Origin: a virus
Lineage: Duplodnaviria; Heunggongvirae; Uroviricota; Caudoviricetes
Direction: 5' to 3' (one strand)
Length of the DNA stretch: 4,786 bases
IMG/VR virus record: IMGVR_UViG_2565956721_000003
Shown: positions 1 through 4,786 of the stretch, one piece after another
Position numbering within the stretch: the stretch's first letter is position 1
How the letters are laid out: each line of letters starts with the position of its first letter
Notes under the pieces: model-generated
The model's database searches: none
The model's input: the letters and a program-made list of their open reading frames with translations, nothing else
Told to the model about the DNA's origin: nothing
Program-made: the position numbers and the translations under genes

Positions 1-555
1 AAGCAGAAAAAGCTTATTATGCTTCCATCGGAAACGATGATCTGGCAGCCTGAGTTCACAGATAAAACACTCTCCAGGAAACCCGGGGCGGTTCATTAGA
101 TGCTTTTTGCTGACTAGCATATTTACAGCATCACGAAGCGGAGTCCTGTCATCAACAGATGTTTTCTTCCGTGCATTTGCTGCCTCTCCCTTTGTCCAGT
201 AGTCATGCAGCACAGTAAAGCATTCTTCCTGGTACTGAATCAGTTTATCGCGGATGTCAGCACGAACTTTCTCAGGGTTGATGCTGAACAGCCATCCATT
301 TAACTTCTTCAAAGGAAGGCAGAGTAGCTTACGAAGCTTACCATCAGCGGCAACCATGTTCATATGAACACAGTTGAATTTGCTAATCTGCTTCATGAGT
401 TTTGTTTGCTGCGTTGACCAGCTCATTCCGAGGTTTTCAACGATTGGCTTCATCGCAACATATGCAACTCCGGCAGCCATGGCGGTGATAATTTGCTGAC
501 CGTTGAATGGCACGTAAGAGGTGTTCACTGCTTCTAAAATTGCTATACTATTCAT
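1..555 (-). CDS. ant: Phage antirepressor Ant (AntA-type N-terminal domain); 5' portion only, gene continues past the window start
   Basis: Minus-strand frame is open from the ATG at 555-553 to position 1 (185 codons, no stop), translated by hand as [60 protein letters not shown]...[20 protein letters not shown] lies about 10 nt upstream of the ATG. The N-terminus matches my recollection of P22 Ant and AntA-domain antirepressors, and the gene sits downstream of an arc-like gene as in P22 immI. Not in the ORF track because it runs off the window edge. Confidence 0.8.
541..549 (+). promoter_or_regulatory. Candidate extended -10 promoter (TGcTATACT) firing antisense to the ant start; possible Psar analogue
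   Basis: Plus strand 541-549 reads TGCTATACT, a TGn + TATAAT-like hexamer with one mismatch. No good -35 was found. A start about 7 nt downstream would fall at about 556, opposite the ant ribosome-binding site. Confidence 0.3.
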
Positions 556-637
556 GTTGGTTTTTCTCCACGGATTTACCGACAACCGAAGCCCTGACTG
601 TTCCAGCAGTTGGGGCTTCACTGTTTTGATTTCTTTG
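556..637 (+). ncRNA. Candidate small antisense RNA (sar-like) complementary to the ant ribosome-binding site
   Basis: A candidate promoter at 541-549 and a plus-strand hairpin with T-run at 588-637 bracket a roughly 70-80 nt transcript antisense to the ant Shine-Dalgarno and start codon. In phage P22 a 68-69 nt antisense sar RNA from the arc-ant intercistronic region is established. Inference from sequence signals only. Confidence 0.35.
588..637 (+). terminator. Plus-strand intrinsic terminator-like hairpin followed by a T-rich tract
   Basis: GAAGCCC (588-594) pairs with GGGCTTC (613-619), with possible inner CTG/CAG pairs, followed by ACTGTTTTGATTTCTTTG (620-637). On the minus strand the same hairpin is not followed by a T-run, so the signal is orientation-specific. 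Confidence 0.4.
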
Positions 638-787
638 CCGCATCAAGCATCACTTCTGAAAACGTGCGCTTGCCACTGAATACTCTTTCTCTTCTCAATT
701 TTTCGTTCGTGCCAAATGATTCGCCATGAACAAAATTTGGTCTTAAAATGGTAATCGCAATCTCTTTGACTACTGCATCCAAGCGAA

Positions 788-940
788 TCACACCGTTACC
801 CCCTCTCTCTTCAGGCTGTCTATCAGGCGCTTGATAACCTCTGAGTTAAACGACCTGCACTCTTCCTTTGCCCTGCTACCGATAGCATCCTTTAACGACT
901 GCGGCATCCTTACCAAAATCTTACTTATTTCTTTCTCCAT
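788..940 (-). CDS. arc: Arc-like ribbon-helix-helix repressor (50 aa)
   Basis: Within track ORF 788..976 the likely start is the internal ATG at 940-938, preceded by GGAGGG with 5-nt spacing. Product MEKEISKILVRMPQSLKDAIGSRAKEECRSFNSEVIKRLIDSLKREGVTV has the size and the 'xxRSxNSE' core of P22 Arc (NGRSVNSE in P22) and lies immediately upstream of ant. Confidence 0.8.
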   Translation of the reverse strand: MEKEISKILVRMPQSLKDAIGSRAKEECRSFNSEVIKRLIDSLKREGVTV

Positions 941-976: not shown

Positions 977-1041
977 AAGATAGCAAAGTGAGTATATCTA
1001 GTCAAAATTTTTTTGCATACACTTTGCTATCAAATTGAATA
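977..1041. promoter_or_regulatory. Divergent arc/ant (Pant-like) and mnt (Pmnt-like) promoter region with a perfect 12-bp inverted repeat, candidate operators
   Basis: Minus strand: TTGACT (complement of 1000-1005), 17-bp spacer, TATCTT (complement of 977-982), a good sigma70 match about 35 nt upstream of arc. Plus strand: weaker TTTGCA/TTGCAT (1012-1018) and TTGAAT (1035-1040) upstream of mnt. GATAGCAAAGTG (979-990) and CACTTTGCTATC (1020-1031) are exact reverse complements 29 bp apart; one half overlaps the Pant -10 and the other lies in the Pmnt spacer. Confidence 0.5.
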
Positions 1042-1054
1042 CCAAAGGTGTTAT

Positions 1055-1303
1055 ATGGCAAAGGGTGTGTCAATTTCTCCAACTACGGTAAGAATCCCTG
1101 AATCTTTACGCGAGGCTCTTGCTGTCAGAGCATCAAAAAATGGTCGCTCTGTTAACTCCGAGATCGTCATGATTTTGCAAGCCGCGATTGATGAAGATAG
1201 GTCGCCAAAGTCAGTTGAGTCATTTGCTCAGCAAGAAGCTGATAAATTCAAAGAGGCGCTACTTGAGACGCTAAAGACCATGTATGCTAAGGATGAAAAA
1301 TAA
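1055..1303 (+). CDS. mnt: Mnt-like ribbon-helix-helix repressor (82 aa)
   Basis: Within track ORF 1013..1303 the likely start is the ATG at 1055, with AAGGTG 4-5 nt upstream. Product MAKGVSISPTTVRIPESLREALAVRASKNGRSVNSEIVMILQAAIDEDRSPKSVESFAQQEADKFKEALLETLKTMYAKDEK matches P22 Mnt in length (82 aa), in the NGRSxNSE motif and in the C-terminal TLKxxYxK segment. It is divergent from arc as in P22 immI. Confidence 0.8.
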   Translation: MAKGVSISPTTVRIPESLREALAVRASKNGRSVNSEIVMILQAAIDEDRSPKSVESFAQQEADKFKEALLETLKTMYAKDEK

Positions 1304-1862: not shown

Positions 1863-1887
1863 AAAAAACCCACCTGACGGTGGGTTT
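1863..1887. terminator. Bidirectional intrinsic terminator between the convergent protease gene and the toxin operon
   Basis: AAAAAA (1863-1868), CCCACC (1869-1874), loop TGAC, GGTGGG (1879-1884), TTT (1885-1887). On the minus strand the stem is followed by six T, so termination is strongest for the minus-strand operon ending at 1886; on the plus strand only three T follow. Confidence 0.6.
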
Positions 1888-2335
1888 AGTCAAACATAGT
1901 GTTTCTAAAGTCTCTCGCATACCCTGCTAACACTCTCATTCTATTATGATTGTTAGCAGACATGTGAGCTACAGGATGAAAAAGAGCAATCAATGAATAC
2001 CTGTTCTCATCAAAAAGATTTTGTGCATAAACGAGAGCGGTATTGGATGTTTTATGCCACTGCAACTTTTGCGGTGTGCTGATATCTGTGCCATTTTTTA
2101 TTGGCTCAAATTTATTTTCACCAATTGCTAAATGAAGGTGCATAAGGCCTGCATCTTCAATATCAGGAGGTCGATGATAAGAGGTGTCTCTGCCAAAATA
2201 GCTGGGCAACGTTCCCGTAGACTTGTAGATGATAAAATCATCTACAAGTGTTTGTTTTAAATCAGGAAACTCAACAAAAACCGGGGAGAAAAAATAGTCA
2301 AAACTATCCTGATTATATTCCACGGTTACTTGCAT
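1886..2335 (-). CDS. YafO-family toxin (ribosome-dependent mRNA interferase family), 149 aa
   Basis: Track ORF 1886..2335. FIIYKSTGTLPSYFGRDTSYHRP, LMHLHLAIGENKFEP and ALVYAQNLFDENRYSLIALFHPVAHMSANNHNRMRVLAGYARDFR align with E. coli YafO as I recall it (FISYKRDGVLPDIFGRDALYDDS, VAHIHLANENNPFP, HLVYCQGAFDEQAWLLIAILKPEPHKLARDNNQMHKIGKMAEAFR). The ATG at 2335 is 8 nt after the upstream gene's stop, with GAGG overlapping that stop. Confidence 0.8.
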   Translation of the reverse strand: MQVTVEYNQDSFDYFFSPVFVEFPDLKQTLVDDFIIYKSTGTLPSYFGRDTSYHRPPDIEDAGLMHLHLAIGENKFEPIKNGTDISTPQKLQWHKTSNTALVYAQNLFDENRYSLIALFHPVAHMSANNHNRMRVLAGYARDFRNTMFD

Positions 2336-2343
2336 GTTTTACC

Positions 2344-2910
2344 TCAGTGGAAGTTACCAGAGTGAAACACACGAGTCCCGTGCTCAGCAAGCGCACGCAA
2401 ACCAGCCATATCTACGGAACTATCAAAAACAACCGGAACACATGAGCGTTGTTTAATAAGACTATTCAGGTTGGTTACGGCAGATCTGGCATCAGCAACA
2501 ACGATATAGATATCTCTTGCGATCTCTTTAAAATCAGCAGAAGCTTCTTTGAATACCGATTTCATTGCCCCTTCAAGTCCTCTCAATTGATGCTCTATCA
2601 ATCGAGACTTTTCTGGTTCAATGATAGACAACACATTGTCTACATTCTCATCGGTAGCGTTTGCAAGAACACGATAAGCGTATTTCAGCATTCGAGACAA
2701 TTCTTTAATCGAAGACACCGCCTCATGAAGCTCATCATTAGCCCGTTCACTGCTGAATGAGGATTGATGGTAAGCGTGCTGAACGTTATCAGTAACAACC
2801 ACCTCACAACTGAACGCAGAAGCTTGCTGTAATAGCAAACCTATTGCGACTCCAGCTTTGGCAGCGTTCAAGCTAAACATTTCATCAATCCCATTAGTCT
2901 CATTGCTCAT
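2344..2910 (-). CDS. Hypothetical 188-aa protein encoded immediately upstream of, and coupled to, the YafO-like toxin gene; candidate atypical antitoxin or partner
   Basis: Track ORF 2344..2940; preferred start is the ATG at 2910-2908, preceded by AAGGAGG with 5-nt spacing (the track's Met at 2940 is a TTG with no RBS). Product MSNETNGIDEMFSLNAAKAGVAIGLLLQQ...GLRALAEHGTRVFHSGNFH has no recognisable RHH or HTH N-terminus and no family I can name. It is roughly twice the size of the known YafO partner YafN (97 aa). Confidence 0.7.
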   Translation of the reverse strand: MSNETNGIDEMFSLNAAKAGVAIGLLLQQASAFSCEVVVTDNVQHAYHQSSFSSERANDELHEAVSSIKELSRMLKYAYRVLANATDENVDNVLSIIEPEKSRLIEHQLRGLEGAMKSVFKEASADFKEIARDIYIVVADARSAVTNLNSLIKQRSCVPVVFDSSVDMAGLRALAEHGTRVFHSGNFH

Positions 2911-2977
2911 ACAAACCTCCTTCTTATCGGAGATTATCAATAGCTATGCATCCATTGAATACACGCTATGCGCAATA

Positions 2978-3453: not shown

Positions 3454-4691
3454 TTATTGAGCTTCTTTTTGTGATGCCTGTGCGACTCTGGTGAGCGATT
3501 GTGTGACCGTACTGATCGCTCTGTCATATGCTGTGCTACCTTTTGGCGTATTTGCCAGACGTAACAAGGCATTTCGTATAACAGGGCTTTCGTATGCCTT
3601 CGCAGCTCCTCCTACGACACCAGCAGCAGGAACAACAAACGCAGCCGTTTTTAGCATCCCCGCTAATACTGCTGCGTTTATGATGCCACCACCAACTAAC
3701 AATCCATAAAGCTGCTGACCATTTAAGTTTTGAACGTTCGCTTTTGCCGCGTGTCTTGTATCGTTGAGGTATTTAATAACGCCGTCCAGTTCCTTTCCAT
3801 GTACGCCTTTAAAGAAAGTTGCTGATTGCTTCCTGTTCCGGTGTAACGCATTAATAAACTTTTCAACACTAATATTTCCAGACGGATCAGTCGCCTTATC
3901 TACAGCATTCTGAACTATGGCTGCTCGTGCGTTTTGCCTACCATTGTCATCCAGAAGCCTGTAAAGCTGAGAACGTTCTGATGGGTTTTGGCTAAAAACG
4001 AGTTTTGTTACATCCTCAGGTGTAGCCTTGCCGCTGGCTATTGCCTTTTGAACGCGCGTTCTTCCCATCATGTCATTGAATCTAGCCCATGAGCGATCAA
4101 CCCTAGACATATTGGCAGCTTCTTCTGAGCCTAGTTTTTGGGATACTGCTTTTTTCATATCCGCTGTATATGCCTTGTAGACAATATCGCTGGCTTTCTG
4201 GAGCGTGTCTTTATCAACAGTCTCGTTTGAATTCATGAACCGCTTTCGAAGGTCAGTTCTGTTTTCTCTCGCCAGACGCAGGTCATTGGGTCCGCTGGTG
4301 ATATCGTCTTTAAATTGCTGCAAGACTTTTACCGCGGCTCTATCCTGAGATTTGCCCGGGCGGCTTAACACGGCAATCTGATTGTCGATAGCTTTTACCG
4401 TGTTTGAGAGATCGACAGGGGTATCCCCCATAGCGTCAATTATGCGGTTATATCGCTTTCCTGCTGCCTCAATGAATTTTTGTTGCCCTTTAGTCGCAGA
4501 TTCATAAAGCTGTTTATCAGAAATGCCACCCAGACCATCGCTAAATGTTCTGACTAAATTTTCTCGTGCTTGTTGTTGATTCAGCCGATTCTTACCGGTT
4601 CCAAAAAAAGGAACTCTTTCGCCTAATGTCTGAGCCTGACTCTGCATAAAGGTTTTATCTTTCAGCGTGTCACTGGTCATTAACGGCAGGT
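3454..4691 (-). CDS. Phage late protein, probable DNA ejection/injection protein (P22 gp16-like by position), 3' portion; 5' end interrupted by an IS element
   Basis: Track ORF 3454..4680 (408 aa). The frame stays open upstream of the ATG at 4680 through the IS boundary and stops only at 4717-4719 inside IS sequence, so the native N-terminus is missing. A glycine-rich hydrophobic segment (GLLVGGGIINAAVLAGMLKTAAFVVPAAGVVGGAAKA) sits near the C-terminus. Assignment to gp16 rests on synteny with P22 (gene 16 lies next to the sieA/mnt side of immI) and on the size deficit (about 410 of roughly 600 aa). Confidence 0.5.
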
Positions 4692-4786
4692 TGAACCGCC
4701 CCGGGAATCCTGGAGACTAAACTTCCTGAGAAAGAGGTAAACAGGATGACTAAAAATACTCGTTTTTCCCCCGAAGTCCGTCAACG
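4692..4786 (+). mobile_element. IS3-family insertion sequence (IS629/IS1203-like), left terminal inverted repeat and start of orfA; continues beyond window
   Basis: TGAACCGCCCCGGGAATCCTGGAGACTAAAC... from 4692 matches the IS3-family left end as I recall it (TGA terminus), followed by AGAGG and the ATG at 4746. Confidence 0.65.
4746..4786 (+). CDS. IS3-family transposase OrfA, N-terminal 13 codons only
   Basis: Translation MTKNTRFSPEVRQ(R) matches the OrfA N-terminus of IS629/IS1203-type elements from memory. AGAGG lies upstream of the ATG. Confidence 0.65.
   Translation, partial: MTKNTRFSPEVRQ

Follow-up and report, generated by a model that had tools for sequence, protein, structure and literature searches.

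The 4786-base window, meaning the whole stretch of DNA that was analysed, is the 'ant moron' or immI region of a P22-like (Lederbergvirus) prophage, and its positions 521-627 on the plus strand are assigned here to the sar gene of that prophage (probability about 0.95). The assignment draws on the identity to P22 sar, the match to a covariance model, the RNA fold, the complementarity to the ant leader, and the conservation of the promoter and the hairpins, all of which were computed at this locus. The find is correct and well localised, and sar here is an already known and ordinary element: its characterisation dates back to 1987, Rfam has a family for it, and the P22 and epsilon34 records show it at the homologous position, so that little discovery value is left. 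The primary literature on P22 sar (Liao et al. 1987; Wu et al. 1987; Schaefer & McClure 1997) is cited through PMC2629481 and PMC7968456. The features of the region are listed below with the evidence for each in brackets.

1-93, no strand assigned: right end of an IS3-family insertion sequence truncating ant (matches to IS3-family copies)
94-555, minus strand: ant', 5' half of the antirepressor gene with the P22_AR_N domain (PF10547, E 1.6e-45)
521-526, plus strand: Psar −35 region GTGTTC (homologous to the first hexamer of the annotated 29-nt Psar)
541-549, plus strand: Psar extended −10, TGcTATACT (TGCTATACT) (same in the window, P22 and epsilon34)
553-569, minus strand: ant translation initiation region, target of sar (sequence)
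556-627, plus strand: sar antisense RNA (RF00262 match and P22 identity; 3' end predicted)
556-583, plus strand: sar hairpin 1 (minimum free energy and centroid fold, Rfam structure line)
588-619, plus strand: sar hairpin 2, the intrinsic terminator stem-loop (terminator scan, fold)
620-637, plus strand: T-rich tail ACTGTTTTGATTTCTTTG (alignments A1 and A2)
618-791, minus strand: 57-codon ORF (ORF57) between arc and sar/ant (ORF list; phrog_17642)
788-940, minus strand: arc, an Arc-family ribbon-helix-helix repressor of 50 amino acids (Pfam PF03869, E 5.1e-12)
977-1005, minus strand: Pant-like promoter, TTGACT, 17-nt spacer, TATCTT, with TG (promoter scan)
1055-1303, plus strand: mnt, an Arc/Mnt-family repressor of 82 amino acids, divergent from arc (PF03869, E 9.5e-11)
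1886-2335 and 2344-2940, minus strand: YafO-like gene and phrog_8416 ORF

In a covariance-model search, the Rfam sar model RF00262 matched positions 556-622 of the plus strand with 83.9 bits (E 2.9e-17; gathering score 43 bits) over its full length (model positions 1-68 of 68). Alignments with P22 (X01916 and BK000583) and epsilon34 (NC_011976) showed that the promoter, the +1 site and the terminator of the window coincide with the annotated Psar, sar and sar terminator of both phages. From +1 to the end of the terminator stem, the RNA is identical to the experimentally characterised P22 sar at 61 of 64 positions. One of the 3 substitutions turns a G.U pair of stem 1 into a G-C pair, the one in loop 1 introduces the base also present in epsilon34, and the remaining differences all lie in the loop of hairpin 2; these few differences are benign. 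Every defining feature of the sar family that is testable here was found, namely the model score, the antisense orientation over the ant ribosome-binding site, the embedded promoter, the two hairpins including the terminator, and the immI context. The latter is given by mnt, arc, ant' and the divergent promoter region at 977-1005, with the extra 57-codon ORF lying between arc and sar. The first-pass annotation had spoken of a sar-like equivalent of the P22 regulator, an interpretation that RF00262 and the P22 alignment bear out, but the element is sar itself.

The promoter lies within the 5' end of ant and reads away from it. A 29-nt Psar is annotated in epsilon34 and P22. The −35 region of the window is a poor match (2/6), with the TG at 522-523 alone invariant among 12 phages, and the activity of Psar would therefore depend on the extended −10. 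This element, which had been noticed before on the strand opposite ant, was located as TGCTATACT at 541-549 of the plus strand; the interval then proposed for the whole regulator, 541-637, leaves out the weak −35 region (521-526) and covers all else. The extended −10 is exact in 9 of the 12 phages and carries one or two changes in the other 3, and the spacing is nearly invariant, the ant start codon lying 3 nt past the −10 and +1 following after 6 nt. On the opposite strand, the −10 overlaps ant codons 3-5 (AGT ATA GCA). Almost all phages use the same synonymous codons here, and Ile is encoded by the rare ATA in 11 of 11 cases, whereas codons 6-13 are completely different between phage types. 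According to this codon comparison, the conservation of the −10 goes beyond what coding constraint explains, and the fixed synonymous codons 3-5 speak for selection acting on the DNA sequence as such, which is what a promoter located within a gene would lead one to expect. Psar is reportedly stimulated by convergent transcription from Pant; a literature search for this activation gave nothing usable. The Emek sar matches the model with 61.7 bits (comparison locus L007, 733-857) yet has a degraded −10, TGCTAAGCT, and the Emek record marks ant as possibly defective; decay of the sar promoter may accompany the decay of ant in this phage.

The plus-strand RNA of 556-630 folds into two hairpins with −32.4 kcal/mol (z = −5.24), a stability reached by none of 200 shuffled sequences, and its minimum free energy fold equals the centroid fold. 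For the minus strand of this region, the fold is no more stable than those of shuffled sequences (z = −1.58). Hairpin 1 is closed by a 6-bp outer stem (GUUGGU/ACCGAC), and its large loop carries the anti-Shine-Dalgarno sequence CUCC at 566-569. Hairpin 2 comprises 14 pairs, 7 of them G-C, around a 4-nt loop, and the stretch homologous to it is annotated as the sar terminator in the P22 record BK000583. What had been described as a hairpin plus T-tract at 588-637 consists of this stem at 588-619 and the sequence ACTGTTTTGATTTCTTTG at 620-637. Its distance from the −10, estimated earlier at about 70-80 nt, amounts to 70 nt if measured between the last bases of the −10 (549) and of the stem (619), and the claim that it resembles a terminator in one orientation only agrees with the terminator scan, which flagged the plus strand alone. 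Since the alignment with the P22 sar region identifies the hairpin as the sar terminator, the possibility that it belongs to another element fails. On the minus-strand side the stem is followed by GGTTGTCGGTAAATCC, without a T run. A terminator serving the minus-strand operon was rejected because that side has no U tract and ant lies downstream in the same operon.

Transcription is predicted to start at G556, which lies 7 nt past the −10 and follows the complement of the ant AUG by one base, and the 3' end probably falls in the U run at 624-627, which would give an RNA of about 69-72 nt. The tail behind the stem is of a different type because the similarity to P22 stops right after the stem: the window has ACTGTTTTGATTTCTTTG, unlike the AACTTTACGCG of P22 and epsilon34, so that the RNA tail reads ACUGUUUU... 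versus AACUUUA in P22. A tail of the ACTGTTTT type is common to the window, 611R6 and Emek.

The target of the RNA is the ant leader. On the minus strand, the ant Shine-Dalgarno sequence GGAG (569-566) is separated by a 10-nt spacer from the ATG at 555-553, and the ribosome-binding site is annotated at the homologous four bases in the P22 record X01916. Complementarity between the RNA and the leader extends from position −1 through the GGAG at 566-569, in agreement with the antisense position claimed by the first-pass annotation, as the Shine-Dalgarno sequence lies within the proposed RNA. Because sar is encoded in cis, the complementarity is perfect and reaches about 50 nt upstream of the Shine-Dalgarno sequence. 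In P22, the ribosome-binding site of ant is blocked when the sar RNA of about 69 nt pairs with the leader, and no antirepressor is made (PMC7968456, PMC3134472, PMC2629481); in cells infected with P22, sar reads have been detected (PMC13397905). From this P22 work we infer that sar would be transcribed in the present E. coli host and would block ant translation here. An RNA of about 70 nt would start from Psar at G556, run antisense through the ant Shine-Dalgarno sequence and continue to the terminator. By analogy with P22, it would then pair with the leader of the ant mRNA and occlude the ribosome-binding site, and translation of the antirepressor would be repressed. Thereby, sar would form a post-transcriptional layer atop the repression of Pant by Mnt and Arc. 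The pairing of sar is said to have been studied by Schaefer and McClure (1997).

Ten further P22-like loci were taken from Salmonella, E. coli, Cronobacter and Edwardsiella phages, and the alignment comprised 12 sequences including the window. All 11 comparison loci match the sar model with 32-98 bits, 10 of them above the gathering score. Nearly invariant in the 12 phages are the extended −10, its spacing to the ant start and +1, and the 32-nt terminator hairpin, which is the most conserved stretch of the region. All 168 of 168 cells of hairpin 2 are paired across the alignment; the changes in it are one compensatory exchange (G-C to A-U in ES2) and four one-sided ones. Hairpin 1 was judged by folding each sequence separately, the MAFFT alignment shifting its 3' arm by one column between types. 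Its sequence varies, and the same hairpin is re-formed by other arms:

P22 type: GUUGGU/ACYGAC
CUS-3: GUCGU/ACGAU
Kapi1: GUCAAUA/UGUUGAU
Emek: AUCAAUAA/UUGUUGAU
ES2: GUUGGUU/GACUAAC

The surrounding genes depart from P22 to different degrees. The earlier statement that Arc, Mnt and Ant differ from P22 is accurate for Arc (39% identical to P22 Arc) and Mnt (36%) and less so for the 5' part of Ant, which is 79% identical to P22 and 98.7% identical to epsilon34 Ant over 154 amino acids; it is because this part of ant is not very different that sar, at about 95% identity, is so similar to P22. The placement of sar between arc and ant, as in P22, did not hold, since sar here lies between the 57-codon ORF and ant. 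ORF57 corresponds over its full length to phrog_17642 (unknown function; E 1.3e-43); the phiv205-1 and E. coli annotations list it as a hypothetical protein. Its start codon GTG and the arc stop share bases (GTGA), which couples its translation to arc, and the foot of the sar terminator stem contains its TGA stop (620-618). Neither Pfam nor PADLOC gave a match to ORF57, and a tblastn search of 50,697 phage records found it in phiv205-1 only. A relationship to the extra ORF of Emek and 611R6 (orf73) was ruled out, as the two show no similarity. In Emek, 611R6, EC.P3 and PhiR12_1, the slot of ORF57 is occupied by different, unrelated small ORFs.

The Pant-like promoter corresponds in position to the Pant/Pmnt region of P22 and epsilon34 and probably drives arc-ORF57-ant. 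A perfect 12-nt inverted repeat, GATAGCAAAGTG and CACTTTGCTATC, is located at 979-990 and 1020-1031 with 29 nt between the arms; the left arm overlaps the −10 end of this promoter and the right arm lies just upstream of mnt. The arms are candidate Arc/Mnt operator sites, although the P22 operators are unlike them in sequence. On the far side of mnt, an ORF of 188-198 codons belonging to phrog_8416 (unknown function) precedes a YafO-family toxin gene (PF13957, E 3.4e-22); this ORF far exceeds the usual size of a YafN antitoxin. PADLOC gave no convincing match to the pair, which may be an atypical toxin-antitoxin or defence pair within the ant moron. A G+C-rich hairpin followed by a T run (AAACCCACCGTCAGGTGGGTTTT, 1865-1894, minus strand) begins inside the 3' end of the YafO-like gene (stop 1888-1886) and is most simply explained as the intrinsic terminator of that gene. 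It resembles the 3' terminator part of sroH with 19.5 bits against a gathering score of 80; this sub-threshold hairpin was the sole further match to an Rfam family in the window and is unrelated to sar.

Exactly at the 3' foot of the terminator stem (620/621), the window ceases to resemble P22 and epsilon34: the ant-sar module is 98% identical to epsilon34, and the sequence past the stem is unrelated. Among phages with unrelated flanks, the 32-nt hairpin hardly varies, and at least four different upstream neighbours abut it, namely arc, ORF57, the Emek orf73 and the EC.P3 ORF. 611R6 and Emek share the tail type of the window and carry another unrelated ORF in that slot. The conserved N-terminal part of Ant versus the divergent Arc and Mnt, together with the break in similarity at the stem, thus marks the hairpin as a mosaic joint. 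This pattern suggests that the hairpin serves as a recombination linker, and the near-invariant 32 nt may, with low probability, be a preferred joint for swapping ant modules between different arc/mnt modules. In the CUS-3 record, a 'boundary sequence' (bsq2) is annotated that begins inside sar.

The ant gene, which was also identified by phrog_524, is incomplete. Beyond about codon 154 it no longer matches full-length Ant, so that an intact gene of about 300 codons with a C-terminal domain is absent from the window; the homologue in phiv205-1 has 300 codons. PGAP likewise annotates the same gene in E. coli SCU-116 as incomplete, with its C-terminus missing. Positions 1-89 have no match in phiv205-1 and match thousands of IS3-family copies in E. 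coli, and the sequence of positions 1-93 adjoins an IS3 transposase gene in SCU-116. Positions 4693-4786 represent the opposite end of the same kind of insertion sequence (IS), both copies having the same orientation. The left IS end terminates with ...CCGGGGCGGTTCA and the right one begins with TGAACCGCCCCGGGAATCCTGGAGAC, which looks IS629/IS1203-like. The right copy cuts a gene-16-like DNA transfer gene (3454-4680, minus strand), which aligns only to positions 243-667 of phrog_770 and therefore lacks about 240 N-terminal residues. The immI region is thus a decayed prophage remnant bracketed by two IS copies.

The first 3198 nt show no substitutions relative to E. coli SCU-116 (comparison locus L014) and two small deletions, one of 10 nt at the junction of IS and ant (93/94) and one of 2 nt (1440/1441) that frameshifts a ClpP-like gene beside mnt. 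The coding sequence of the latter is 537 nt long in SCU-116 and phiv205-1, and the window retains only a 51-codon ORF (1303-1458). As there are no mismatches to an E. coli strain with the same remnant, the intactness of sar is uninformative about selection in this host.

Due to the truncation of ant by the IS3-family element, sar is intact but the circuit is a remnant. The first-pass annotation had concluded that the phage keeps the regulator; this is valid for sar, but with ant truncated by an IS the wording suits the intact relatives better. In the window, sar guards a pseudogene whose product would no longer be a full antirepressor, and its regulatory function may be moot here.

Beyond the window, 93 of 5426 complete E. 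coli genomes, APEC O1 and S88 among them, have the arrangement of sar and ORF57, and about 340 have a related copy. Escherichia phage phiv205-1 shares 98.8% identity with positions 90-1887. At this locus, a sar feature is missing both from the annotation of phiv205-1 (comparison locus L002) and from the RefSeq/PGAP annotation of E. coli (L014), which is a systematic annotation gap, and the practical value of the present result lies in the annotation of sar in these genomes. The promoter embedded in ant codons 3-5 would also be missed by a gene finder. Of minor interest are the joint at the terminator foot, the extra ORF between arc and sar, and the intact sar beside an IS-truncated ant. The ant moron of the APEC O1 prophage ('APEC-1') has already been discussed by Villafane et al. 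(PMC2629481).

The identification of sar has to be weighed against readings of the same locus that concern its present function or its very existence. The strongest of these, to which we would give slightly less than even odds, regards the element as sar by descent that is biologically idle here and persists because too little time has passed for decay. The state of the region is in line with such a sequence relic: ant ends after about codon 154 at the IS3-family end, the tailspike gene and the gene-16 homologue are cut by IS copies as well, the latter without its N-terminal part, IS ends flank the window at 1-93 and 4693-4786, and 0 mismatches in 3198 nt to SCU-116 leave no time for decay or purifying selection to show. 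Since this reading concerns current function alone, it does not contradict the identification as sar. The promoter, the RNA and the target ribosome-binding site are all intact, so that the RNA is probably still made, and the N-terminal domain of the truncated Ant could still be translated and regulated. An unlikely extension is that P22-like phages entering the cell are affected in trans, the sar of the remnant acting on their ant leaders and damping their antirepressor; the ant leader of the window differs from those of epsilon34, N7, HZ41 and 611R6 by 2 mismatches in 80 nt. Such an action would alter the outcome of superinfection or shield resident prophages from induction, and sar would then be a domesticated anti-antirepressor RNA.

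It is also improbable that the hairpin functions mainly in the sense transcript or as DNA, for instance as an attenuator, a processing site or a module linker, with the antisense RNA being secondary. The sense transcripts in question would be the arc-ORF57-ant mRNA or late read-through towards the tailspike gene; that the ant moron modulates read-through into this gene is a proposal mentioned in the epsilon34 paper (PMC2629481). The extreme conservation of the 32-nt hairpin between unrelated flanks, the end of the P22/epsilon34 similarity at its 3' foot and its many upstream neighbours would all fit this idea. However, the minus-strand stem lacks a U tract and its fold is unremarkable (z = −1.58), and the conserved promoter at a fixed distance, together with the published P22 work, shows that the plus-strand RNA is a real product; roles of the hairpin in sense RNA or DNA could coexist with sar, not replace it. 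The reading that a −10-like nonamer and a hairpin lie together by chance, and that no RNA gene exists, would be somewhat in keeping with simple counts: the nonamer TGNTATACT occurs once in the window with 0.10 expected by chance, at least one copy arose in 20 of 200 shuffles of the window, and terminator-like sites are not enriched overall in positions 1-1400 (2 found by the scan versus 1.1 expected). This reading is already refuted by the Rfam match (E 2.9e-17), the near-identity to the experimentally characterised P22 RNA and the matches of the comparison loci, and its residual probability is negligible given a fold of z = −5.24 and an element conserved in 12 phages.

The sar gene of the window is closest in kind to that of P22 (Rfam RF00262). 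Both have the same promoter nonamer at the same distance to +1, the same two-hairpin fold, the antisense position over the ant Shine-Dalgarno sequence abutting the ant start codon, and the same immI context of mnt, divergent Pant, arc and ant. They differ in the tail behind the stem, which is unrelated (ACUGUUUUGAUUUCUUUG in the window versus AACUUUACGCG in P22), and in the gene whose stop overlaps the 3' end of sar, which is arc in P22 and the 57-codon ORF here. Furthermore, Arc and Mnt are just 36-39% identical and ant of the window is cut short by an IS element. The closest annotated relative of the ant-sar part is epsilon34 (NC_011976; PMC2629481), in which sar was annotated by similarity. 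It is 98.2% identical over window positions 400-620 and has Psar and sar annotated at homologous coordinates; in contrast to the window, arc directly follows sar there, and the similarity ends at the foot of the terminator stem. In phiv205-1 and the ExPEC/APEC prophages (APEC O1, S88 and others), the sar-ORF57-arc-mnt segment is 99.7-100% identical, but ant is of full length (903 nt) and sar is unannotated. SCU-116 resembles the window in that its ant is cut by an IS3-family element as well.

Other antisense RNAs covering a ribosome-binding site are RNA-OUT of IS10 and the c4 RNA of P1/P7. Neither is known to have a sequence or structural relationship to sar. The likeness lies in the principle, as a small, structured, constitutive RNA pairs with a translation initiation region and blocks the ribosome. 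Unlike a convergent cis-antisense transcript such as sar, c4 arises by processing of the same transcript and targets complementary sites upstream; the c4 RNA of P1 likewise controls an antirepressor gene, ant, in an immI region.
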